DNA of 64,000 bases from positions 608,001-672,000 of the forward strand of contig CAWIIV010000006.1 in the NCBI GenBank assembly GCA_963836205.1, written 5' to 3'. Every line of letters begins with the position of its first letter. Position 1 is the stretch's first letter. The stretch is from an uncultured Acidimicrobiia bacterium. GTDB lineage: Bacteria; Actinomycetota; Acidimicrobiia; Acidimicrobiales; AC-14. A model generated the notes under the pieces. It was not told the DNA's origin. It searched no databases and saw only the letters and a list, made by a program, of their open reading frames with translations. The position numbers and the translations under genes are program-made. Below are positions 6,816-61,801 of this stretch, one piece after another.

Positions 6816-8242
6816 ACCGCCCCTGGGGCGCACTGCCCTGTCCCCGGCGGCGGACGACAACCAGCGTGGCCCTGAGCCTGGCCCTGGCGCTGGCGTTCTC
6901 CGTCCTGGCCGCGCCCACGGCCACCGCCACCGGCCGGACGGCCCAGTCCGAGCCCACGCCCCACACCGAGTCCGACGCCTCCGAGGCCGGGGCCCAGGCC
7001 GAGAGCCAGGCCCCGGCCGAGATCCCGGTGCCCACCGGCTCGTTCGTCACCTACCGGGTCTTCACCACCCAGTACGCGTCCCACGACCCCGCCAGCGTCG
7101 AGGTGGCGGTGCCCGACAAGTGCGCCAAGTTCGCCGCCCTCAAGAACACCGGCGCCCTCAGCAGCCAGGGCTGCCCCGCCGGCTACAGCACCAGCCTCGA
7201 CTACCGGGTCATCGTCACCCTGGCCAACGGCCGCAGCGAGATCATCCCGGTGAAGGACGTCGGGCCGTGGAACGTCGACGACAACTACTGGAACCCGAGC
7301 GCCGCCGGCTCGCCCCGTCCCCGGCGCCTGTTCGGCAGCCTCCCCACCGGCAAGCCCGCGGCCACCGCCGCCTTCAGCGAGGGCTTCAACGTGCAGGCCA
7401 ACTGCAAGGACCTCGAACAGCAGCCCACCACCCGCACCGCCGGCGCCGACCAGTTCGGGCGCTGCGTGCTCAACCCGGCCGGGATCGACCTGTCGCTGGA
7501 GGCGGCCAAGAAGCTCGGCCTGCGCCCCGGCGAGAACGCCTTCGTCAACGTCACCTTCCTCTGGGAGCCGGTGACGCCCGGCACCAAGCCCGGCCTGAAC
7601 CGCCTGAACGTCCGTTACCTGCGCCAGACCCGCACCAGCGGACCGGCCGACTTCAGCTACACCTACGGCGACCCGGCCGACTTCCCGCTCATGGGCGACT
7701 GGGACGGCAATGGCACCAAGACCCCGGGCGTGTTCCGGGCCGGCACGTGGTTCCTGCGCAACTCCAACAGCACAGGAGTGGCCGACATCACGTTCGGCTA
7801 CGGCAGCCCCGGCGACTACCCGGTGGTCGGCGACTGGAACGGCGACGGCGTCGACACCATCGGGATCTTCCGGGCCGGCAACTGGTACTTCCGCAACGCC
7901 AACTCCACCGGCGTGGCCGACGCGGTGTGGCCCTTCGGCGACTTCGGCGACATCCCGGTGGTGGGCGACTGGAACGGCAACGGCACCGACACGTTCGGGG
8001 TCGTGCGCCGGGGCATCTGGTACATCGCCGACTACTTCGACGCCGGCCGGGCCGAGCAGGTCTTCGGCTACGGCAACCCCGAGGACACCCCCGTCGTCGG
8101 CGACTGGGACGACGACGGTGACACCACCGCCGGGATCTTCCGCGACGGGCAGTGGTACACCACCGACACCCTCGGCTCCAGCGCCGCCGACGACAACTTC
8201 CACTTCGGTGACCCCGCCGACCGTCTCGTCCCCTGGAGCTGA
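6809..8242 (+). CDS. Secreted protein with a double-psi beta-barrel (RlpA/expansin-like) domain and C-terminal GDWDGNG (FG-GAP-like) repeats
   Basis: Signal peptide; PVKDVGPWN...AGIDLS; about five repeats of WxLRNxNxxGxADxxFxYGxPxDxPxxGDW; GGAGG RBS. Confidence 0.8.
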   Translation: MVNRPWGALPCPRRRTTTSVALSLALALAFSVLAAPTATATGRTAQSEPTPHTESDASEAGAQAESQAPAEIPVPTGSFVTYRVFTTQYASHDPASVEVAVPDKCAKFAALKNTGALSSQGCPAGYSTSLDYRVIVTLANGRSEIIPVKDVGPWNVDDNYWNPSAAGSPRPRRLFGSLPTGKPAATAAFSEGFNVQANCKDLEQQPTTRTAGADQFGRCVLNPAGIDLSLEAAKKLGLRPGENAFVNVTFLWEPVTPGTKPGLNRLNVRYLRQTRTSGPADFSYTYGDPADFPLMGDWDGNGTKTPGVFRAGTWFLRNSNSTGVADITFGYGSPGDYPVVGDWNGDGVDTIGIFRAGNWYFRNANSTGVADAVWPFGDFGDIPVVGDWNGNGTDTFGVVRRGIWYIADYFDAGRAEQVFGYGNPEDTPVVGDWDDDGDTTAGIFRDGQWYTTDTLGSSAADDNFHFGDPADRLVPWS

Positions 8243-10472: not shown

Positions 10473-12350
10473 CTACGTCTGGGACTGGCTGCCGGGGAAC
10501 GGGCCTCGGACGTCGACGGTGCGCTTGAGAAGGGTGAGGCTGGGCAGGCCGCCGTCGGGGTTGAGCCGCTTCCAGATGAGCTCGAGCTCGGGGTCGTGGA
10601 GCTCGCCGGCGGCGGTGGCGAGGGCCTCGGCCAGCCAGTCGAAGCCCTGGGCCAGCTTGCACTCGGGCAGGCCCAGCTCGTCGGCCCGCTCGGTGAAGGT
10701 CTTGAAACGGGCCCGGGTCACCTGGTCCCACTTGGGGGTGACGGTGGGACTCATCACCGCCGCCGACCGGAGGAGGTTGGCGTAGCGGGGAAGGAGCTGG
10801 GCCTCGTCCATCTTCAGGCAGGCGTCGCCGATCTCCACCAGGGCGAGCTTGGCGTCGGTGTAGGTGACCGGTCCCATGCCGCGGATGTCGGCCATCGACA
10901 ACCCGGCCATGACGATGGTCTCCAGCAGGTGGCCCAGGGCGGCCTCGGCCAGGGCCATCTCGTACAGGTACGACCGGCCCATCCGGTCCCAGTCCTGCTT
11001 CATGACGTCGTCGGCGAACGACTTGCGCAGGATCGCCGACGCCTCCGCCGGCAGCCCGCTCATCCGGTAGGTGCGGGCCTGCAGCACCGAGAACAGGGAG
11101 AACTTCTCGCCCATGGCCGCCGCCGCCTCGTCGGCCACCACCCGGGCGATGCGGTCGGCCCGGTCGCGGGGGATGCCGAAGCGCTCGTAGCGCCCGGCCA
11201 GCACCGGTCCGGCCGTCATGATCGGCCCGTCGGACACCAGCGGACCGAGCTTGCGGCCCACCCGTCCGGTGGACTGCACCAACCGGCGCCAGATGTCGTC
11301 GAGGTCGCGGTCGCCGGCCCGGCCGGCGTCGACCAGCCGCACCGCGGCCTTGGCGATGGCCGGATGGCGGGTGCGCAACGAGCTCCCGCTTCCAGCGCCG
11401 AGGCCGGCGGCGATCAGCCGAGCCCGGATCGCCGGTGCGCCCGCCCGTTCGATGCGAGCCAGGTCGGCGATCACGGCCAGGTCGACGCCGTCGAAGTCGC
11501 ACGCCTCGGCCACGGCCACGGAGAGGAACGCCTCCAGATCGGCCGATCCGACATCGGCCACCAGTGCCGCCACGTGCTCGAGCAGGCCGTCGGGGCCGAA
11601 GCGCTGGTCGAGGATGCCGCCGAGCATGGTGGCGTCGCACATCCCCTGGCGGGACCCGACCGCGTCGAGCAGGTACTGGCCCCGCTCGTCGGCGGGGTCG
11701 GTTTCGAGCGCCCCCAGCGACCCGGCCCCGGCCCACACCTCCACCAGGCGGTCGGCGTCGGCGGGGGCCAGCTCGATCAGCTTGGTCCGCATCCCGAGCG
11801 TCGGCCACAGGCTGACGAACTTCTCCCACGGCGGCTCCGCGCTCCGCCCCTGGTGCTTGAACTTGGACTCCCAGTCGGGACTGCGCCCGACGAGCACCCA
11901 GTGGATGTCCTTGCGGCGCTTGGCCAGGGGCGTGACCGTGCTCTCCAGGTCGGCCGCGATCTCCTCGGCGTCGTCGCTGACCAGCACCCACGGCCCCTCG
12001 GGCAGGGCGGCCACGGCATCGTCGTCGAGGCGGGTGCCCGGGTCGCGGAACAGCACCTTGGTGCCGGCCCGCACCAGGTCGACCGCGATCTGGCGGACGG
12101 TGGTGCTCTTGCCCTGGCCCCGCGGCCCCACCAACAGCACCATGGCCGACTCGATGGTGCGCTCGAACGCCGCCACCGCGGGCGCCACCGCCTGGCGGCG
12201 CAGGACCTGGTCCTCCGGCGCCTGGGCGACGCGCCAGTCGGCCGGGCCACCGTCGTAGAAGCGAATGAGGTCGTCGGCCCCCAGCGGCCCGCCGTTGTCG
12301 GCAAGCAGCTCCGGGGTGACTTCGGTCCAACCTGGCAACAACTCGCTCAC
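10473..12350 (-). CDS. P-loop NTPase, STAND-like, with a helical C-terminal region
   Basis: Walker A GPRGQGKST, Walker B WVLVSDDA, and WVLVGRSPDW; GGAGG RBS; GTGA overlap with the upstream gene. Confidence 0.75.
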   Translation of the reverse strand: MSELLPGWTEVTPELLADNGGPLGADDLIRFYDGGPADWRVAQAPEDQVLRRQAVAPAVAAFERTIESAMVLLVGPRGQGKSTTVRQIAVDLVRAGTKVLFRDPGTRLDDDAVAALPEGPWVLVSDDAEEIAADLESTVTPLAKRRKDIHWVLVGRSPDWESKFKHQGRSAEPPWEKFVSLWPTLGMRTKLIELAPADADRLVEVWAGAGSLGALETDPADERGQYLLDAVGSRQGMCDATMLGGILDQRFGPDGLLEHVAALVADVGSADLEAFLSVAVAEACDFDGVDLAVIADLARIERAGAPAIRARLIAAGLGAGSGSSLRTRHPAIAKAAVRLVDAGRAGDRDLDDIWRRLVQSTGRVGRKLGPLVSDGPIMTAGPVLAGRYERFGIPRDRADRIARVVADEAAAAMGEKFSLFSVLQARTYRMSGLPAEASAILRKSFADDVMKQDWDRMGRSYLYEMALAEAALGHLLETIVMAGLSMADIRGMGPVTYTDAKLALVEIGDACLKMDEAQLLPRYANLLRSAAVMSPTVTPKWDQVTRARFKTFTERADELGLPECKLAQGFDWLAEALATAAGELHDPELELIWKRLNPDGGLPSLTLLKRTVDVRGPFPGSQSQT

Positions 12351-12601
12351 GTTCCTCCCTCGACACCTTCACCCAGCTGGCGCAGCGCTTCGGCCAGTGC
12401 TGCTCGTAGCCGGCGGGCGGACTGGGGCGTCAGGTGGGTGATGATCCCCGTGCCCCGCCGGTCCTCCTCCTCGACCGTGATCTCCACGCGAATGTCCTGG
12501 CACGCGTCGCAGTCGTCGGCGATGGCGACCGCCCACGACGCCGGGGGCCGCTCGCCACCCCGGGGGTGGTCGTCCATCCCGTAATCGATTGATTTCTTCA
12601 T
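12347..12601 (-). CDS. Small hypothetical protein with a CxxC motif
   Basis: 84 aa, DDCDAC motif; stop overlaps the NTPase start. Confidence 0.7.
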   Translation of the reverse strand: MKKSIDYGMDDHPRGGERPPASWAVAIADDCDACQDIRVEITVEEEDRRGTGIITHLTPQSARRLRAALAEALRQLGEGVEGGT

Positions 12602-12663
12602 GCCGACTTCTTCATTGCGACTTTTTCATGGCGACTTCTTCACACGACCTGCGGCTTCTTCAT
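12588..12663 (-). repeat. 14-bp tandem repeat (R)TGAAGAAGTCGNN, four copies plus one variant, encoding overlapping mini-ORFs
   Basis: Units begin at 12643, 12629, 12615 and 12601 on the minus strand; variant ATGAAGAAGCCG at 12663. Confidence 0.9.
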
Positions 12664-13230
12664 GGGGATGTCCTCGCCGCCGGCGGTGTTGGCGATCTTG
12701 GCGATCTCGCCCTCGACCACCTGGTCGAGGTTGGGCGTCTGCGAGTCGACCATCGGGTCCCAGCCGGGGCGGGCGCTCACGTCGTAGCCCGCCTCCAGGA
12801 TCAGCTTCTCGATGTGGAGCTGGGCCTCGGGTCGGAAGCGGCGGACGACACCGCCCGGCAGCATCGGCAGGGGGATGTTGAGCATCCCGCACGCAACCTC
12901 GAGGGTGGCGTCGTACTGGCGGATGTAGTCGGTCCACTCTCGAGTCTGGTCCTCGTACTCGATCCGGGTGAACTTCGAGTAGCCGGCCATGATCGTGTTG
13001 AGCCGGCGCAGCTGGGCCCCGATGATGACGATGTCGAGGTCGGCGCCGGGCGCCTCCAGCAACCACTCGTCGACCTCGTGGCGCTTGGCCAGCTGGGCCG
13101 CCTTCTTGTTGTAGACCTCGATCTCCTGCGGGTACGTGCTCGACTGCGCCTGGGCGAGCATGGCCCGGATCCGCACCACGATCTTCAGCCACTCGGCTTC
13201 GGCCCGCGCTTCTTCTTCGTCGTCAGTCAT
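12640..13230 (-). CDS. DUF2786-domain protein fused to an unknown helical domain
   Basis: IVVRIRAMLAQAQSSTYPQEIEVYNKKAAQLAKRHEVD matches the DUF2786 pattern. Confidence 0.7.
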   Translation of the reverse strand: MTDDEEEARAEAEWLKIVVRIRAMLAQAQSSTYPQEIEVYNKKAAQLAKRHEVDEWLLEAPGADLDIVIIGAQLRRLNTIMAGYSKFTRIEYEDQTREWTDYIRQYDATLEVACGMLNIPLPMLPGGVVRRFRPEAQLHIEKLILEAGYDVSARPGWDPMVDSQTPNLDQVVEGEIAKIANTAGGEDIPMKKPQVV

Positions 13231-13318
13231 GGGCCGTCAGCCTCGGGAAGGTTTTCGAGCTACTGGGCGTCATCGCAGGTGGGCGACGACATCTCCTTCC
13301 CGCATGATAGCCGGGGGG

Positions 13319-13747
13319 TCAGGAAAGGCTGCCCTCCACGTTGATCCTGACGCCGCCCCGCAGGGCATTCGACACCGGGCAAGACCCCTCGGCCGCGGTG
13401 AGGGCCTCCCGGAAGGCCCTCTCGTCGGCGCCGGGGACGGTGGCCACCACGACCAGGTCGATGGCGGTGATCGTCGGCGGCTCGAACGTGCAGGTGGCCT
13501 CCACCTCGAGCAGGGCGGGCGGGTTGCCCCGGGAGCTGAGCTCGTTGGACAGGGCCATGCAGAAGCAGGCCGCGTGGGCGGCCGCCAGCAGCTCCTCGGG
13601 GCTCGTCTTGCCGCCCGGCTGGTCCTCGGTGCGAGCCGGCCAGCTCACCGGCGCGTCGGTGAACAGCCCCGTGCTGGCGGCCGAGACCGTCCCGTTGCCC
13701 TCGAACAGGTCGCCTTCCCACTTCGCACTCGCCCTGCGCTGCGCCAC
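13319..13747 (-). CDS. osmC: OsmC-family peroxiredoxin
   Basis: TSPEELLAAAHAACFCMALS and CPVSNAL; AAGGAG RBS. Confidence 0.92.
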   Translation of the reverse strand: MAQRRASAKWEGDLFEGNGTVSAASTGLFTDAPVSWPARTEDQPGGKTSPEELLAAAHAACFCMALSNELSSRGNPPALLEVEATCTFEPPTITAIDLVVVATVPGADERAFREALTAAEGSCPVSNALRGGVRINVEGSLS

Positions 13748-22746: not shown

Positions 22747-23919
22747 CTACGGCCGCCAGGTCAGCTGCTTGTCGCTGGCGTTGCCGTAGCTGAACGAGGC
22801 GTCGGCCACGCCCGTGGTGTTGGAGTTGCGGAGATACCAGGTGTTGCCGCGGACGACACCCGGTGTCACCGAGTCGTTCCCGTCCCAATCGCCGGGCACG
22901 GCCTTGTCGGTGGAGTTGCCGTAGGTGAAGTTGCTGTCGGCTGCGCCCTGGCTGTTGGAATTGCGGATGTACCAGACGCTCGCACGCACGACGCCGGGAG
23001 TGTCCGAACCGCTGCTGTCCCAGTCGCCCACGACCGGGACGTCACCCGGATTGCCGTAAATGAAGGAGATGTCGGCTGCGCCCTGGCTGTTGGTGTTGCG
23101 CAGGTAGAACGTGCCGTTGCGGACGACGCCGGGGGTGACGGTGCCGTTGCCGTCCCAGTCACCTGCGATGGGCGTATCGCCCGGGTTGCCGTAGATGAAC
23201 GTCACGTCGGCCGCGCCGGTGGAGTTGGCGTTGCGCAGGTACCAGGTGCCGGCCCGCACCACGCCCGGGGTCACCGAGCCGTTGCCGTCCCAGTCTCCGG
23301 TGATGGGGATGTCGCCGGTGGGGTTGCCGTAGACGAAGACGGTGTCGGCGTTGCCCGTGGTCTGGCTGTTGCGCAGGTACCAGGTGTCGGCCCGCACCAC
23401 GAGGGGCCGGTCGCGCTTGGGTCCCGCGGGCGGGATCGTCGAGGTCGTGGTCGAGCTGGTGCTGCTCGTGCTGCTGCTGCTGGTGGTCGTGGCGCCGACG
23501 ACGGTGGTGCTGGTGGTCGTGGTGGCGCCCGGCGTCGTGGTGGTCGTGGTGGTGGAGGTGCTCGACGTGGTGGTGGTGGCGTTGACGCAGGAGCTGAACA
23601 CGGCCGAGTCGACCTCTTGGCCCACGACCACGACGACGGCGTTGACGCTCTTGGGAACCGCCTTCTCGATGGAGCTGCTTGCGGGGACGGTGAACGCGAT
23701 CGGCGGCCCCGCTCCTTGGATGGTGCCCGTCACCGACGTGGTCCGCTGGTTGTTGAGGACGACGAAGTTGGTCGTCTCGGCACCGGTGCCACAGCGAGGC
23801 GTCACGGTCAGCTGGGCGATCGCCGCGTTCGCCATCGTCGGGAGAAGCAGGAACCCGACGGCGACCATTGTCGCCAGACACACTGCCCTCATAGTCCGAA
23901 ATCGAGTGGACCGATCCAT
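22747..23919 (-). CDS. Secreted protein: small beta domain, Thr/Ser linker, GDWDGNG repeat domain
   Basis: Signal peptide (ANA), poly-Thr/Ser tract, five WYLRN...GDWD repeats. Confidence 0.85.
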   Translation of the reverse strand: MDRSTRFRTMRAVCLATMVAVGFLLLPTMANAAIAQLTVTPRCGTGAETTNFVVLNNQRTTSVTGTIQGAGPPIAFTVPASSSIEKAVPKSVNAVVVVVGQEVDSAVFSSCVNATTTTSSTSTTTTTTTPGATTTTSTTVVGATTTSSSSTSSTSSTTTSTIPPAGPKRDRPLVVRADTWYLRNSQTTGNADTVFVYGNPTGDIPITGDWDGNGSVTPGVVRAGTWYLRNANSTGAADVTFIYGNPGDTPIAGDWDGNGTVTPGVVRNGTFYLRNTNSQGAADISFIYGNPGDVPVVGDWDSSGSDTPGVVRASVWYIRNSNSQGAADSNFTYGNSTDKAVPGDWDGNDSVTPGVVRGNTWYLRNSNTTGVADASFSYGNASDKQLTWRP

Positions 23920-23962: not shown

Positions 23963-25687
23963 TCATGCACTGCGCCACGTCAGTGGCTTGTCGCCGGAGT
24001 TGCCGTAGCCGAAGCTGACGTCGGCCGTGCCCGTGGTGTTGGAGTTGCGGACGAACCAGGTGCCGGCGCGCACGACGCCTGGGGTGGTGGCGCCGTTGCC
24101 GTCCCAGTCGCCCGGCAGCGGGATGTCGGTGGGGTTGCCGTAGCCGAAGGTGGCGTCGGCCGTCCCGGTGCTGTTGGAGTTGCGCAGGAACCAGGTGCCG
24201 TTGCGGACGACGCCCGGGGTGGCCGAGCCGGTGCTGTCCCAGTCGCCGACGACCGGGAGGTCGCCCGGGTTGCCATACGTGAAGGAGACGTCGGCCACGC
24301 CCGTCGTGTTGGCGTTGCGCAGGTACCAGGTGCTGCCCCGGACGACCCCGGGGGTGACGGTTCCGTTCCCGTCCCAATCGCCTGCGATCGGCGTGTCGCC
24401 CGGGTCGCCGTAGGTGAGGGTCACGTCGGCGACGCCGGTGGAGTTGGCGTTGCGCAGGTACCAGGTGTTGCCCCGCACCACGCCCGGTGTGGCCGAGCCG
24501 TTGCCGTCCCAGTCGCCGGTGACCGCCGTGTCACCGGTGGGGTTGCCGTAGTCGAACACGACGTCGGCGGTGCCGGCGGTGGCGGTGTTGCGCAGGTACC
24601 ACTTGCCCGACCGCACGACGAGGGGCCGGGCCTTCTTGTCGACCGTCCCCGGCACCGTGGTGGTGGTCGACGTGCTGGTGCTGGAGGTACTGGAGGTGCT
24701 GCTGGTGCTGCTGGTGCTGCTGGTGCTGGTGGTGGTGCTGGAGGTCACCGGCGACCCGCCCAGTGGCTGCCAGTCGGGCGAGGTGGCGCCGGCCCCGCTG
24801 ATCACCTTGGCCAAGGCGTTGCCCGGGATGTTGTAGCCGTAGAGGCCGTCGCCCTCGGGACCGCCGGTGAGCCGGAAGAAGATGATGTTGCCGTCGGGCG
24901 ACCACGTGGGCTCGGCCACCAGGCAGCCGCCGTCGGGCACGTCGTCGGGGCTGGCGCCGCTGGAGGAGATCCGGAAGATCCGGCTGTCGCACCCGGCCGC
25001 CTCGGCGGTGAAGACGATGCTCGACCCGTTGGGCGACCACTTGGGTGTGACCAGGTTGTCGTAGGGCTTGGCGTCGGGGGAGGTGGTGCCCGTGAGGGGG
25101 ATGACGTCGGTGCCGTCGGCCTTCATGCTGTAGATCCCCGAGCCGCCCTCGCCGTCGCCCCGCTGGAAGACGATCCGCTCGCCGTTGGGGGACCACTCGG
25201 GGGCGCGGTCGTCGGTGTCGGTGCCGAGGGCGTCGCCGTTGGTGAGCTGGGCCAGTCCGCCGGACCCGTCGGCGTTGATGACGAAGAGCCGGTACTCGCC
25301 GCCGACCCGGTCGCTGGAGAAGACGATGCGGTTGTTGTCGGGCGACCACGCGGGCTGGACGTCGTCGGCCGCGTTGCTGGTGAGGTTGGCGACGAAGGAG
25401 CCGTTGGCGGCCACCTTGAAGACGTCACCGTTGCTGTTGACCTGGCGGTCGAACGTCAGCCACGCCCCGTCCACCGACCACGCAGGGTGGTCGGCGTCGT
25501 CGAGAAACTTGGCCGGGCTGGTGCCGTTGGGCAGCGCGGTCCACAGGTCGCCGTCCTGGATCCAGGCGATGAGGCCGTTGGCGCCGGGGAAGGTGGCCTG
25601 GCTCTGGGGCACCACGACGCCCAGCGCGACGGCCACGACGACCCCCGCGGCGACCTTGATCCGAGTTGCTATTGCCCGCATGCGCAC
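23963..25687 (-). CDS. Secreted TolB-like (PD40/WD40-like) propeller protein with Thr/Ser linker and GDWDGNG repeat domain
   Basis: FPGANGLIA, repeated PxWSPDG, and the same C-terminal repeats as 22747..23919. Confidence 0.88.
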   Translation of the reverse strand: MRMRAIATRIKVAAGVVVAVALGVVVPQSQATFPGANGLIAWIQDGDLWTALPNGTSPAKFLDDADHPAWSVDGAWLTFDRQVNSNGDVFKVAANGSFVANLTSNAADDVQPAWSPDNNRIVFSSDRVGGEYRLFVINADGSGGLAQLTNGDALGTDTDDRAPEWSPNGERIVFQRGDGEGGSGIYSMKADGTDVIPLTGTTSPDAKPYDNLVTPKWSPNGSSIVFTAEAAGCDSRIFRISSSGASPDDVPDGGCLVAEPTWSPDGNIIFFRLTGGPEGDGLYGYNIPGNALAKVISGAGATSPDWQPLGGSPVTSSTTTSTSSTSSTSSTSSTSSTSTSTTTTVPGTVDKKARPLVVRSGKWYLRNTATAGTADVVFDYGNPTGDTAVTGDWDGNGSATPGVVRGNTWYLRNANSTGVADVTLTYGDPGDTPIAGDWDGNGTVTPGVVRGSTWYLRNANTTGVADVSFTYGNPGDLPVVGDWDSTGSATPGVVRNGTWFLRNSNSTGTADATFGYGNPTDIPLPGDWDGNGATTPGVVRAGTWFVRNSNTTGTADVSFGYGNSGDKPLTWRSA

Positions 25688-26959: not shown

Positions 26960-27450
26960 GGCGCGGGTGGGCGGGGGGCGAACGGGGGGCCGTCGGCGCC
27001 GTGCGCGGGGGGCCGGGCGAGCGGGGGCGCGGGGGCGTGAGGCGGGGGCGCCGTGTGCGGGGGCGTGAGGCGGGGGCGCAAGGCGGGGGCGCCGTCGGCG
27101 CCGTGCGGGGGCGTGAGGCGGGGGCGCCTTGTGCGGCGTCGTGAGGCGGGGGCGCAAGGCGGGGGCCGCGAGGGCGGCGCGGGCCGTCGTCCTCCTTCCC
27201 TCTACATCCACGAGCCGTACCACTCGGGATCACGGCCACCTCGCCGGGACCCCCTCGGCACCAAGGGTTCTCGGCCGCCCCGCCCACGGTCGCCCCGCCC
27301 ATGGTCGCCGCGCCCACGGTCGCCCCGCTCGCCCCTCCGCTCTCCCCCGCCGCTCCGCTCTCCCCGCTCGCCCGCTCGCCCGCTCCGCTCTCCCCGCTCG
27401 CCCGCTCCGCTCTCCCCGCCGCCCGGCCGCCCCGCTGACCCCGCCGCCCG
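26960..27450. repeat. Low-complexity repeats: G-rich GCGTGAGGCGGGGGCGC (about 4 copies), then C-rich CGCTCCGCTCTCCCCGC and CGCCCACGGTCGCC units
   Basis: Directly visible between rmlA and the HNH gene promoter. Confidence 0.85.
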
Positions 27451-27523
27451 GCCTGCAACCTCGCCGCCGGCGTGAATGGGCCCGCGACCGACCAATGCTG
27501 CTCAGAAATGCACCTCCACATTC

Positions 27524-28729: not shown

Positions 28730-28959
28730 GGTGCCGGGTGAGGGCTGGCCGGAACGCCGGTTCCATGTCCATGGCTCCAACGCGCCTCAAAGCCGGTTGA
28801 CGGTGGACGAGCCCAGGTCGAGATCGGACGGGGCGGGGTCGGGCCGGGGCGGCGTTCGGCCGGGTCGTGGGGTGCAGGGGGTCGGGTCGGACCGTGGTTG
28901 GGCCGGGCCGGGGGCGTGGTCGGGGGTGGTCGGGCCGGACGGGTGGTGCCGGGGCGGGG

Positions 28960-29185
28960 GTGGTGCCCGGTCGTGGTGGCGCCGGTCGCGGTGGTGGCCG
29001 GTTGTGGTGATGCCCGATCACGGTGGCGCCCGGTCGTGGTGATGCCCGGTCGGGATGCCGGTCGGTGGTGGCCGGTTGTGGTGGCGCCGGTCGCGGTGGT
29101 GGCCGGTTGTGGTGATGCCCGATCACGGTGGTGGCCGGTTGTGGTGGCGCCGGTCGCGGTAGTGGCCGGTCGCGGTGGTGCCGGC
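28960..29185. repeat. Tandem repeat of about 16-bp units (GGTGGTGGCCGGTYGY) with a higher-order duplication
   Basis: GGTGGCGCCGGTCGCGGTGGTGGCCGGTTGTGGTGATGCCCGATCAC occurs twice, plus partial units. Confidence 0.85.
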
Positions 29186-58866: not shown

Positions 58867-60696
58867 GTGCCGACGCCGGGGTCGAGGCCCGTGGCCGTGC
58901 TGTTCTGCGACGGCGACCCGGGGGCGTGGCTGCCGACGGTCGCCGCCCTGGGTCGGGCCGCGCCCGGCGTGCCAATCGTGGTGGCGGGGCCCGACCCGGC
59001 CGCCCTGGCCCCCCTCGTGGCCGCGGGGGCGACGGCGACGACGGCCACGTCGCTGGCGGCGGCAGTCAACCAGGCATGGCCGGCGCATGTGGTCGCGGTG
59101 ATGGCGCCCGTCACCCTTCCCGACGATCCCTTCACTCCCGCCCTCGCCATCGTCGACGGCGACCGGCGGGTGGCGACGGTCGGGTTCCTGGCCGACGTGG
59201 GCGACGACGACGGGCTCGTGACCCGACGGTTGCGCGCCACCGGATCGCCCCGCCCGGAGCCGGCACCGGTGCCCTACGCCACCGGGCCGGTGGTCGTGCT
59301 CTCCCGGCACGCCTTCTCCGCCGTCGGGCCGCTGCTCGAGGCGGGCCCGGCGGAGGCGGTGGCCGACTTCTCCCTCCGCGCCCGGCGCCGGGGCTTCCTC
59401 GACGTGGTCGACCCGTCGACCCAGGTCACCGGCCCCCCGACCCCTCCCGACCGGCGGTGGCTGCTCGAACGCCACCCGTTCGTGGCCGCCCTCCTCGACC
59501 ACGACGACGACGGCCCCGGCGCGGCCGGCGAATCGCCGATTGCCGTCGTCCGCTCGGCCGCCCGGGCCCGGGCCCGTGGCCTGCGCATCCTGGTGGACGG
59601 GTCGTGGCTGGGCTCGTGGGAGATGGGCACCCAGGTCCAGGCGGTGGCGATGGTGCAGGCCCTCGCCCGCCGCCCCGACGTGGCCCAGGTCACCATGGCC
59701 CTGCCCGCTGTCCTCCCGGCCGCCGCCCGGGCCCTCCTCGACGGACCAAAGGTCGACGCCCGGGCCGACACCGGCGGCAACCTGGCCGGCCTGGGCCCGG
59801 CCGACGTCGTCCACCGGCCGTTCCAACCCGATTGGCCCCTCGACATCGGTGCCTGGCGCCGGGAGGCGGCCCGCACCGTCGTCTCCATCCTCGACCTCAT
59901 CGCCTACACCGTGGGGTCGTACCACCCGTCGGGCGGGCACTGGGTGGCCCACCGGCGCACCGTCCGCCAGACCGTCGGCGCGGTCGACGGGGTGGTGGTC
60001 ATCTCCGACGACGTGGCCCTCCAGGTCCGCCGGGAGCGGCTGGCGGTGGAGAACGACCGCCTGTTCGTGGTCGGCCTGGGCACCGACCACCTCCAGTGGG
60101 ACGCCCCCGACTCGAAGCCGGCCGCCCTCGCAGACACCGGCCGGTTCGTCCTCGTCCTGGGCGCCGACTACGCCCACAAGAACCGCGACCTTGCCGTGGG
60201 CGCCCACGCCGACCTTGTCCGCCGGGGCCTCGACGTGGGGCTCGTCCTCGTCGGCCCGTCCGTCCTCCACGGGTCGTCGGCGGTGGCGGAGGCGGCCGCC
60301 GCCGGGCCGACCGTCGGCGCCGGAACCGTCCGCCTGCCCAACGTCCCCGCCGCCGAGCGCAACTGGCTCCTGCGCCACGCCGCCCTCGTCCTGTACCCGA
60401 CCTCGGCCGAGGGCTTCGGCCTCGTCCCCTACGAGGCCGCCCGCCTGGGGACGCCGACGGTGATGGTGCCGGTGGGACCCCTGGTGGACCTGGCCGCCCG
60501 CCTGCCGGTGTCCGCCGCCACGTGGTCGCCTGCGGCCCTCGCCGACGCGGCCGAGGCCCTCCTGTGGGACCCCACCCTGGCCGCAGCCCAGGTGCGGGCC
60601 ACGCTCGCCGCCGGCCGCGACCTCACGTGGGACGCCACCGCGGCCCGCCTGGTCGACGTCTACCGCTCGCTCCTGGCCCGCCCCGCAGTACGTTGA
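58867..60696 (+). CDS. GT4 glycosyltransferase with a degenerate GT2-like N-terminal domain
   Basis: YAHKN and YPTSAEGFGLVPYEAA; the N-terminus retains DFSLRARRRGF. Confidence 0.82.
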   Translation: MPTPGSRPVAVLFCDGDPGAWLPTVAALGRAAPGVPIVVAGPDPAALAPLVAAGATATTATSLAAAVNQAWPAHVVAVMAPVTLPDDPFTPALAIVDGDRRVATVGFLADVGDDDGLVTRRLRATGSPRPEPAPVPYATGPVVVLSRHAFSAVGPLLEAGPAEAVADFSLRARRRGFLDVVDPSTQVTGPPTPPDRRWLLERHPFVAALLDHDDDGPGAAGESPIAVVRSAARARARGLRILVDGSWLGSWEMGTQVQAVAMVQALARRPDVAQVTMALPAVLPAAARALLDGPKVDARADTGGNLAGLGPADVVHRPFQPDWPLDIGAWRREAARTVVSILDLIAYTVGSYHPSGGHWVAHRRTVRQTVGAVDGVVVISDDVALQVRRERLAVENDRLFVVGLGTDHLQWDAPDSKPAALADTGRFVLVLGADYAHKNRDLAVGAHADLVRRGLDVGLVLVGPSVLHGSSAVAEAAAAGPTVGAGTVRLPNVPAAERNWLLRHAALVLYPTSAEGFGLVPYEAARLGTPTVMVPVGPLVDLAARLPVSAATWSPAALADAAEALLWDPTLAAAQVRATLAAGRDLTWDATAARLVDVYRSLLARPAVR

Positions 60697-60700
60697 ACCG

Positions 60701-61801
60701 GTGACCCGCACCCACTCCGACGAGGCCGCCGACCTGGCCGTCCTGGCCGTCACCCCTGGCAGCCGGGTCGTGCTCGTCGGCGGCACGCCCGCCCTCACCG
60801 CCGCCCTCACCGACCGCGGCTGCCACCTCGACGACGAGGGCGACGCCGTCGACGCGGTGGTCGTCCACGGCGGGGCGACGACCGCCGAGGCCCTGGCCGA
60901 CGTCGCCACCCGCCTGGCCGCCGGGGGGCGGGTGGTCGTCACCGCCCCCAACGTCACCCACGGGGCGGTGCGCCTGGCCCTCCTCCAGGGCCGCTTCCCG
61001 TCCGCCGGCGACGGACCCGTGTTCGACCGGGACGCCCTCGACCGGCTCTTCTCCGACGCCGGCCTGGTGGTGCTCGACCGCATCGAGGTCCGCCGCCCCC
61101 TCGACGAAGCCGGGGTCGACGTCGACCCCGACGCCTTCAAGCCCGAACTGCTGGCCGCCATCGACGACGACCTCGACGCCCAGGTGGCCTCGCTCGTGTT
61201 CGTCGGCCGGCGGGCCACCGACGACAGCGTGGCGGTCGTGTCCGGTCCCGACGGGCTCTCGCTCGCCGAGGAGCTGCAGGACCGGCTGCGGCGGGCGGAG
61301 CTCGAGGCGGCCCGAGCGCGGTCCGACGCCGACGCCCGGGGCGAGCGGGTGCGGGAGCTCGAAGAGGCCCTCCGAGCCCGGCTGGCCGAGCTCGACGACC
61401 TCCACGGCGAGCTGGCCCACGCCCGCATGGACCTGGAGCTGAAGGACGCCTACTCGCTGGAGATGCGCACCCTCGCCGACGACCGCGAGATGCAGGCCCA
61501 CCTCACCCGGCTGGAGGCCCAGGCCCTCCAGCGATCGGTCGACCACCTCCAGGCCAACCTGCTGGAGGCCCACGCCCTCCTCGCCAGCCGCACCGGCGAG
61601 CTGGCCGTGGCCCGGGTGGAGATGAACCAGGTGGCCACCGAGCTCGACGCCGTCATCCACCGGGCCAGCTACCAGATCGTCGACGGCACCACCAAGGCGC
61701 TCGAACGGTTCCGGCCCGCGGCCCGCCTGGCGACGGGAGTGGCCCGCCGGCTGGCCCGCCTCGCGGGCCGGGGCCGACCGCCGGCCGCGCCGGGAGCCTG
61801 A
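60701..61801 (+). CDS. Degenerate methyltransferase-like domain with a long coiled coil
   Basis: LAAGGRVVVTAPNVTHGAVRLALLQGRF; SAM motif I eroded (SRVVLVGG); heptad repeats. Confidence 0.72.
   Translation: MTRTHSDEAADLAVLAVTPGSRVVLVGGTPALTAALTDRGCHLDDEGDAVDAVVVHGGATTAEALADVATRLAAGGRVVVTAPNVTHGAVRLALLQGRFPSAGDGPVFDRDALDRLFSDAGLVVLDRIEVRRPLDEAGVDVDPDAFKPELLAAIDDDLDAQVASLVFVGRRATDDSVAVVSGPDGLSLAEELQDRLRRAELEAARARSDADARGERVRELEEALRARLAELDDLHGELAHARMDLELKDAYSLEMRTLADDREMQAHLTRLEAQALQRSVDHLQANLLEAHALLASRTGELAVARVEMNQVATELDAVIHRASYQIVDGTTKALERFRPAARLATGVARRLARLAGRGRPPAAPGA

Follow-up and report, generated by a model that had tools for sequence, protein, structure and literature searches.

The 64,000-nucleotide (nt) stretch of DNA studied here (positions 608,001 to 672,000 of contig CAWIIV010000006.1, assembly GCA_963836205.1, from an uncultured Acidimicrobiia bacterium; hereafter the window) carries on its minus strand an operon of three genes, which encode a DUF2786-domain protein, a small protein of 84 amino acids (aa) and a STAND NTPase. 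On that strand, the region 12598-12663 links the DUF2786 gene to the 84-aa gene via three five-codon mini-open reading frames (mini-ORFs). A first-pass annotation, made from the sequence alone, had proposed that this tract is a termination-reinitiation relay, i.e., that ribosomes finishing the DUF2786 gene would be handed on to the 84-aa gene by way of the mini-ORFs.

The tract between the DUF2786 and 84-aa genes

The 3' end of the DUF2786 gene reads ATG AAG AAG CCG CAG GTC GTG TGA, with the TGA at 12642-12640. From this stop codon to the start of the 84-aa gene there are four junctions in series, each a 4-nt RTGA overlap (R being A or G): GTGA, ATGA, ATGA and finally the ATGA at which the TGA of mini-ORF 3 overlaps ATG 12601 of the 84-aa gene. 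The chain was reproduced by a tracer script that steps from each stop codon to the overlapping start, and Tandem Repeats Finder reported an array at 12594-12642 with a period of 14, 3.5 copies, 85% matches and a score of 77. The layout first read from the letters, with its three mini-ORFs, RTGA junctions and 14-nt repeat, is therefore correct to the base. The claim that coupling would be kept at any copy number also holds as arithmetic, 14 being 15 - 1. The unit pattern, RTGAAGAAGTCGxx, is the first 12 nt of the 84-aa gene (its start and three codons) plus two bases, and because of this match we take the gene's own 5' end to be the origin of the unit.

When the 64-kb window was searched with the degenerate 14-mer, only the three units matched without a mismatch; one mismatch added 12650-12663, and up to two mismatches gave 12 matches against 1.94 expected, a count that 0 of 100 shuffles reached. 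The look-alike at 12650-12663 (ATGAAGAAGCCGCA) shares the DUF2786 reading frame and does not form an ORF of its own; it lies 20 nt (also 3n+2) before unit 1, and the codons homologous to it in the DUF2786 tails of relatives encode L/M-K/R/P-K-P-Q. It may be due to chance, to an older duplication or to conversion. The tract 12598-12663 has 48% GC, against 72.5% for the window, and the lowest 60-nt bin has 0.417, so it is indeed AT-rich in high-GC surroundings, as had been noted. It had further been observed that the substitutions among the units leave the starts and overlaps intact. This is what is seen, in that the start and stop letters are spared; given some five differences across 14 positions, however, it is not significant alone (approximately 0.3 by hand arithmetic). 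Two other candidate signals within the tract were rejected. One is a -1 slippery site at GAAAAAG, where the A-AAA-AAG heptamer would need a seventh A; the other is AAGAAG as a Shine-Dalgarno (SD) sequence for the next start, set aside by reasoning from the 16S 3' tail.

Table 1. Features of the tract and of the operon around it, in window positions.
Feature	Position	Strand	Details
Mini-ORF 1	12643-12626	-	GTG AAG AAG TCG CCA TGA (GTG-K-K-S-P-stop); unit 1 = 12643-12630
Mini-ORF 2	12629-12612	-	ATG AAA AAG TCG CAA TGA (M-K-K-S-Q-stop); unit 2 = 12629-12616
Mini-ORF 3	12615-12598	-	ATG AAG AAG TCG GCA TGA (M-K-K-S-A-stop); unit 3 = 12615-12602
Repeat-unit look-alike ATGAAGAAGCCGCA	12650-12663	-	in last codons (MKKPQ) of the DUF2786 gene; 13/14 positions
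DUF2786-domain gene	12640..13230	-	196 aa; first gene of the operon; Pfam PF10979, E 6.1e-08
84-aa gene	12347..12601	-	start MKKSIDYGMDDHP; 46 homologues; MKKSID..DDHP..DDCDxCxDIRVE..SARRLRAALA
STAND NTPase gene	10473..12350	-	625 aa; Pfam PF25199 nSTAND_NTPase5, E 2.9e-23
SD-like core GGGAGG	12354..12359	-	in 3' end of the 84-aa gene, 3 nt before GTG 12350

The GC content at third codon positions (GC3) of the three minus-strand genes is 0.95, 0.82 and 0.95 (DUF2786 gene 0.95; 84-aa gene 0.82), and that of the alternative ORFs overlapping the DUF2786 gene is 0.39-0.65; these values mark the three genes as the real frames, and the ORFs that overlap them on the plus strand or in alternative frames as spurious. 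The GTG 12350 of the NTPase gene overlaps the TGA of the 84-aa gene (GTGA). For the DUF2786 protein we retrieved 19 homologues, all at least 79% identical, with the last ~20 residues variable; 15 of the 16 aligned tails end in V or L, and therefore a G precedes the TGA, giving GTGA. Between the OsmC-like and DUF2786 genes stands GGAAGGAG, followed by a 10-codon ORF, MSSPTCDDAQ-stop (window 13260-13300, minus strand).

The homologues of the 84-aa protein were retrieved at E <=0.001 among 49 candidates. The family is widespread in Acidimicrobiia, with heterogeneous neighbors at distant loci, and its invariant residues include D6, D10, D11, H12, W23, D29, D30, C31, C34, R38, E44, H56 and R63. No Pfam, NCBIfam, PADLOC or PDB match above cut-off was found for the protein, and in the Atlas it was associated with DUF6295 at 0.87, which is a lead only. 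The first-pass annotation had named initiation at an internal ATG (the Met of MDDHP) as a finding that would count against its proposal. Because the MKKSID N-terminus is conserved in the homologues (M1, K2 and S4 at 90% or more and D6 invariant in the alignment of 47 sequences), we place the translation start at ATG 12601 and not at that internal Met.

The junction in relatives and at two unrelated sites

Relatives were drawn from a scan of one genome per species, in which the best 80 of 220 loci with the small gene were analysed, all in Acidimicrobiia-type metagenome-assembled genomes (MAGs). Eight of the 80 loci (L001-L008) have the neighborhood of DUF2786 gene, small gene and NTPase gene, and the other 72 are without it. 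An upstream OsmC gene was matched in seven of these eight (not in L004), and glycosyltransferases lie downstream in six; because of these common neighbors, we regard the eight as orthologous chromosomal loci.

The junction between the DUF2786 gene and the small gene differs among them. In the window it consists of units of 14, 14 and 14 nt, in L001 of units of 8, 8, 17 and 14 nt, and in L007 of units of 29 and 14 nt. L003 has one 14-nt unit (MRKSP), as do L005, L006 and L008 (MNQSP), which are three contigs of one MAG, and L002 has one two-codon ORF, i.e., a 5-nt unit. L004 has none, the DUF2786 stop codon directly overlapping the small gene's GTG (GTGA). All of the unit lengths (5, 8, 14, 17 and 29 nt) equal 2 mod 3. 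In 9/9 loci, which represent 7 distinct junction sequences with 0 to 4 mini-ORFs, the chain runs without a break between the stop of the DUF2786 gene and the start of the small gene. The indels at the junction are restricted to the interval between this stop and this start. In L007, the middle unit aligns with unit 2 of the window but has lost its start and is 15 rather than 14 nt long; the first mini-ORF reads through 14 + 15 = 29 nt and closes on the next ATGA, which 28 nt would not do. A survey of copy number and conservation in relatives had been put forward as a check on the relay, and its result, with unit number and unit sequence varying and phase kept throughout, does not refute it.

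The neighbors in a tree of the NTPases differ in unit count, with L003 (one unit) next to L004 (none) and the window (three) next to L007 and L005 (one), and we infer from this that the junction has been altered repeatedly. The near-identical locus on the three contigs of MAG CAWHIC01 (L005, L006 and L008) may reflect strain variants or a duplicated region.

Further relays were found by searching the fetched loci for chains of at least three links. In L056 (9840-9881), an Alpha-E gene (PF04168, E 1.2e-68) and a transglutaminase gene, as assigned with Pfam, are separated by an 8-nt repeat, GTGAAGCG x4. This Alpha-E to transglutaminase junction is continuous in 12/12 loci (L056, L021, L022, L031, L039, L042, L043, L050, L068, L069, L070 and L071), two of them by direct overlap (GTGA in L071, TAATG in L043) and ten by bridging units of 5, 11, 17, 17, 8x3, 50, 101+8, 113, 116 and 134 nt, all 3n+2. 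One of the 17-nt bridges is a six-codon ORF entered via a 1-nt TGATG overlap. The status of L042, L068, L069, L039 and L043 was read directly from the sequence, and four of these five were re-found by an independent tracer. The 113-, 116- and 134-nt inserts have a common 25-nt core, which occurs only at its own junction, in 3/80 loci; its orientation in L022 is opposite to that in L021 and L050, and the junction is bridged either way. Several indels set these inserts apart from one another, and although the single indels are not multiples of three, each insert closes.

The second additional relay, in L027 (10693-10740), consists of units of 14, 14 and 17 nt between a 352-aa ORF and a NifU-like gene. 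The same junction is bridged in 3/3 loci, by these units in L027, by 65 nt in L014 (~10982-11046) and by 116 nt in L015 (7540-7657), where the bridging ORF contains a perfect 57-nt (3n) internal tandem duplication of 2.0 copies. The peptides encoded by these other relays are VKR and VTVEA.

Several further repeats were recorded. Those bearing RTGA in L077, L079, L065, L035 and L074 and at window position 27029 are not relays between same-strand genes. Short tandem repeats lie directly 3' of the small-gene stop at three distant loci, L035 (2222-2283, 8 nt x7.8), L074 (6238-6278, 13 nt x3.3) and L077 (659-688, 10 nt x3). In the window, a two-codon, TTG-started bridging ORF with an 8-nt unit lies between coding-like ORFs at 60694-60701 (plus strand) and may be due to chance. 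Tandem repeats of 135 nt (and 270 nt) with 72-77% identity at 7662-8055, 22780-23401 and 23989-24620 are probably protein domains, and long GC-rich arrays with periods of 8-30 nt and up to 16 copies lie at 27029-27453 and 28933-29184.

A proposed termination-reinitiation relay and its alternatives

We read the tract as a termination-reinitiation relay from the DUF2786 gene to the 84-aa gene, built by local duplication of the junction, and, judging from the sequence comparisons, we give this reading a probability of about 0.6. It is carried by the conserved phase in relatives, by the two unrelated junctions and by the lack of an SD sequence at the small-gene start. Where the DUF2786 gene meets the SD-less 84-aa gene, the junction was duplicated locally in tandem, probably by replication slippage. 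With a unit of 14 nt (3n+2) that begins with RTGA, each copy makes a five-codon ORF stopping inside the next RTGA. Ribosomes ending the DUF2786 gene would then reinitiate at GTG 12643, translate five codons and terminate on the next start, and the cycle would repeat until the small-gene start at 12601, so that four hops of -4 nt would replace a single untranslated gap of 38 nt. Such a gap would need stepping stones because, according to published reporter work, termination-reinitiation coupling is nearly gone with an untranslated spacer of ~20 nt (PMC10666635). Short ORFs are described in a review as able to bring ribosomes to a coupled start (PMC12548453).

On this relay reading, the mini-ORFs would be translated, and selection would bear on whether the chain closes, and neither on its peptides nor on how many copies there are. 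The peptides, which vary freely (MKKSP, MNQSP, MRKSP, MKP, MT, VKR), are most likely by-products. The suggestion of the first-pass annotation that the relay might be sensitive to the supply of Lys-tRNA is not supported, because the peptides differ freely, with MNQSP, MRKSP, MKP and MT in relatives and VKR and VTVEA in the independent relays, and because the lysine codons copy the downstream MKKS start. Copy number may tune downstream expression, as the first-pass annotation proposed, and the effect could go in either direction: each hop should lose some ribosomes, whereas the predicted openness of the small-gene start rises with the number of units.

No SD core precedes ATG 12601, and the next junction, between the small gene and the NTPase gene, has GGGAGG. 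The SD-like core of this second junction is GGGAGGA or GGGAGAA in relatives, and its RTGA overlap is found in 8/9 loci, the overlap in L002 being 8 nt. At the distant loci (L009-L080), an SD-like core precedes the small gene in only 5/72. A T[AT]NNNT hexamer, often TTGACT within TGGTTGACT (positions -12..-7), ends 6-9 nt before the small-gene start in 46/72, and in 32 of these 46 exactly at -7, with 0-1 at any other offset. T[AT]NNNT at this spacing is the pattern of leaderless actinobacterial mRNAs, which suggests that the distant homologues are usually expressed from leaderless mRNA. No -10 hexamer of the leaderless type precedes ATG 12601, where positions -12..-7 are GAAGAA. A start built for SD-independent initiation would, we infer, suit reinitiation once inside an operon.

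How far continuity exceeds chance was estimated with a phase-random null, for which spacers of the observed lengths +/-1 nt were simulated with the upstream RTGA kept. With such spacers the chain was unbroken in 0.20-0.33 of trials; with CTGA as the upstream stop, the fraction was 0.01-0.05. Leaving aside L056 and L027, which were picked by the search, the spacer-bearing orthologous junctions are bridged in 11/11 cases, each expected by chance at 0.33 or less; with at least nine distinct spacers, this is of the order of 1e-4 to 1e-5 by hand arithmetic.

A number of observations weigh against the relay. First-order Markov copies of the window give about one three-link chain per 64 kb (0.085 per 64 kb for chains of at least four links). 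A chain alone is weak evidence; it is the tandem repeat, the way it fits exactly between two real genes and the pattern seen on comparison that go beyond chance. The focal junction by itself offers approximately four independent phase-keeping events (the 14-nt duplication, the 5-nt unit, the 8-nt unit and the net +1 in L007), or roughly 0.33^4 = 0.01 by hand arithmetic, which is suggestive only, and slippage by an AAG triplet, which is 3n by mechanism, may account for the 17-nt unit. Copy number is not conserved (0 to 4), and all of the sequences are metagenome assemblies. Tandem Repeats Finder arrays show no period bias, with 49 in class 1 and 47 in class 2 mod 3, and with a crude gene model there is no 3n+2 excess in 47 co-directional pairs with spacers of 1-150 nt, the unit lengths falling 23, 19 and 5 into classes 1, 2 and 0. 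In addition, the start of the small gene lies in a rather open, AT-rich region (predicted probability of being unpaired, 0.54), which in this in silico model makes de novo initiation possible.

Three further surveys were set aside as evidence. Across 860 kb, RTGA-to-RTGA tandem pairs are too few to use, with 9 in period class 0, 3 in class 1 and 4 in class 2 mod 3; a survey of junctions with 75 direct overlaps and 23 bridged ones is descriptive and without a null; and the length of the ORF ending on the small-gene start in the 80 loci was dropped as a measure, since alternative frames in high-GC DNA often stay open over long distances and confound it. The 3n+2 rule is not universal, and the constraint seems to be tied to junctions whose downstream start is an SD-poor NTGA.

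The tract may instead be neutral slippage debris, i.e., a harmless microsatellite in which the chain is a by-product of the 14-nt unit, the mini-ORFs are unused and the small gene is initiated de novo. The inconstant unit number, the lack of a global 3n+2 bias in the crude surveys and the ease with which chains arise by chance in high-GC sequence all fit this explanation. So does the start itself. Its openness, predicted in silico for seven related sequences, increases with the number of units, from 0.37-0.38 with 0 or 1 unit to 0.54, 0.57 and 0.44 in arrays, and in the 46 distant relatives mentioned above the gene seems to be leaderless, so that its start can work without an SD sequence. Nevertheless, we consider neutral debris unlikely: non-homologous indels (5, 8, 14 and 29 nt here, 5 to 134 nt elsewhere) are all 3n+2, continuity is 9/9, 12/12 and 3/3 against the 0.20-0.33 expected, and in L007 the change in length restores closure after the loss of a start.

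An improbable proposal is that the array is an adaptive rheostat, in which a selected copy number, quickly changed by slippage, sets the ratio of the small protein (and perhaps the NTPase) to the DUF2786 protein. The unit number does differ between sister lineages, and for a variable-number tandem repeat of mycobacterial interspersed repetitive units (MIRU-VNTR) upstream of mycobacterial fpg1, the mRNA level is reported to have varied with repeat length (PMC2734929). However, L005, L006 and L008, all contigs of one MAG, are alike in their single unit, relatives do not keep to any one copy number, and the predictions do not give the direction of any effect.

That the tract acts as a nucleic-acid element, for instance as a set of regulator binding sites, an RNA structure, or an AU-rich RNase cleavage or standby site, is very improbable, even though direct repeats in an AT-rich island of GC-rich DNA might bring such an element to mind. 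Rfam gave no match on 12000-13600 at E up to 1, the predicted fold of 12520-12720 is not significant (z -1.51, with 16/200 shuffles folding as well) and leaves the tract mostly unpaired, and the promoter and terminator scan found no promoter-like site, and its single terminator-like site is on the opposite strand. The unit is absent elsewhere in the window, L004 and L002 (none and 5 nt only) are without a 14-nt unit, the unit sequence drifts (e.g., ATGAACCAGTCGCC), and a binding-site model does not predict the 3n+2 rule. Leader-peptide attenuation was likewise rejected, there being no significant structure, no minus-strand terminator-like site and no Rfam leader family. An assembly or sequencing artefact, conceivable insofar as the window and all relatives are assemblies, is hardly credible, given that related arrays occur in independent MAGs from different projects and that indel errors arising at random would disrupt the chain, not preserve it.

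Comparison with known systems and significance

The closest known case is the MIRU, of which each 77- or 53-bp unit reportedly holds an ORF overlapping the next, as described by Supply et al. in 1997; both lengths are 3n+2. Similar to a MIRU array, the focal tract is a tandem repeat between co-oriented genes. The literature also describes a repeat ORF coupled at -4 nt to the downstream gene (PMC12548453) and a copy number that varies between lineages (PMC2734929, PMC4213456), and both features are seen here. In contrast, the focal unit is 14 nt long, as opposed to the 40-100 bp given for MIRUs in PMC2734929. MIRUs are dispersed at 41 sites in H37Rv and are possibly mobile, whereas the 14-nt unit, copied from the start of the downstream gene, was found only at this locus in the 64-kb window, and the host is an Acidimicrobiia bacterium rather than a Mycobacterium. 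The focal tract thus works like a MIRU array but falls outside the class on unit size and dispersal. The inserts at the Alpha-E junction (50-134 nt, in either orientation) are nearer to MIRUs in size and behavior than the focal tract is. A literature search for a short-unit relay brought up the MIRU case alone and no account of short self-chaining repeats like these, although subscription papers and preprint supplements may hold precedents.

Each hop is otherwise a standard 4-nt ATGA or GTGA overlap, as in ordinary translational coupling, and the downstream start lacks an SD sequence, as is described for many M. tuberculosis NUGA pairs in a preprint (bioRxiv 10.1101/2022.06.01.494293) that also notes upstream ORFs (uORFs) overlapping further uORFs by 4 nt. 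What differs here is that a repeat strings several hops together and that the intermediates are five-codon ORFs whose products are unlikely to have a function. Employing a short ORF solely to bring a ribosome to the coupled start is likewise known from uORF ribosome delivery and synthetic bicistronic designs (PMC12548453); those are single leader ORFs with their own SD sequence at the 5' end of the message, whereas the focal tract is internal, multi-step and built from repeats. With contingency loci, the tract has in common a slippage-prone short repeat beside a start codon. We do not regard it as a phase-variable contingency locus: the array sits upstream of the start and its frame closes whatever the copy number, so that no frameshift switches the gene off, and no promoter-like site was found.

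It is conceivable, though we think it quite unlikely, that self-chaining 3n+2 RTGA microsatellites are a general, evolvable means of resizing intercistronic spacers in high-GC actinobacteria with the hand-over kept, and that copy number here is a slippage-driven dial. If true, the dial would set the amount of 84-aa protein, and perhaps of NTPase, per DUF2786 protein, and the array would be a translational analogue of contingency loci that acts via the number of reinitiation hops and not via frameshifts.

Although 4-nt overlaps with translational coupling are common, it is still debated whether ribosomes actually move from a stop codon to a start, and over what distance (PMC12548453, PMC10666635). 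A spacer between coupled genes that has been rebuilt repeatedly with unrelated sequence, and always closed by bridging ORFs, is natural evidence on this point; such closure would be expected if every step of the hand-over requires an overlap and if ribosomes translate the intermediates. Of these cases the focal array is the smallest, with five-codon units derived from the gene's own start, and the natural series of 0, 1, 2, 3 and 4 mini-ORFs provides a test bed for the efficiency of one reinitiation hop. Annotators should bear in mind that a short repeat found where two genes meet in a high-GC genome may consist of functional ORFs. Finally, the tract suggests that MIRU-like behavior is not confined to mycobacteria.

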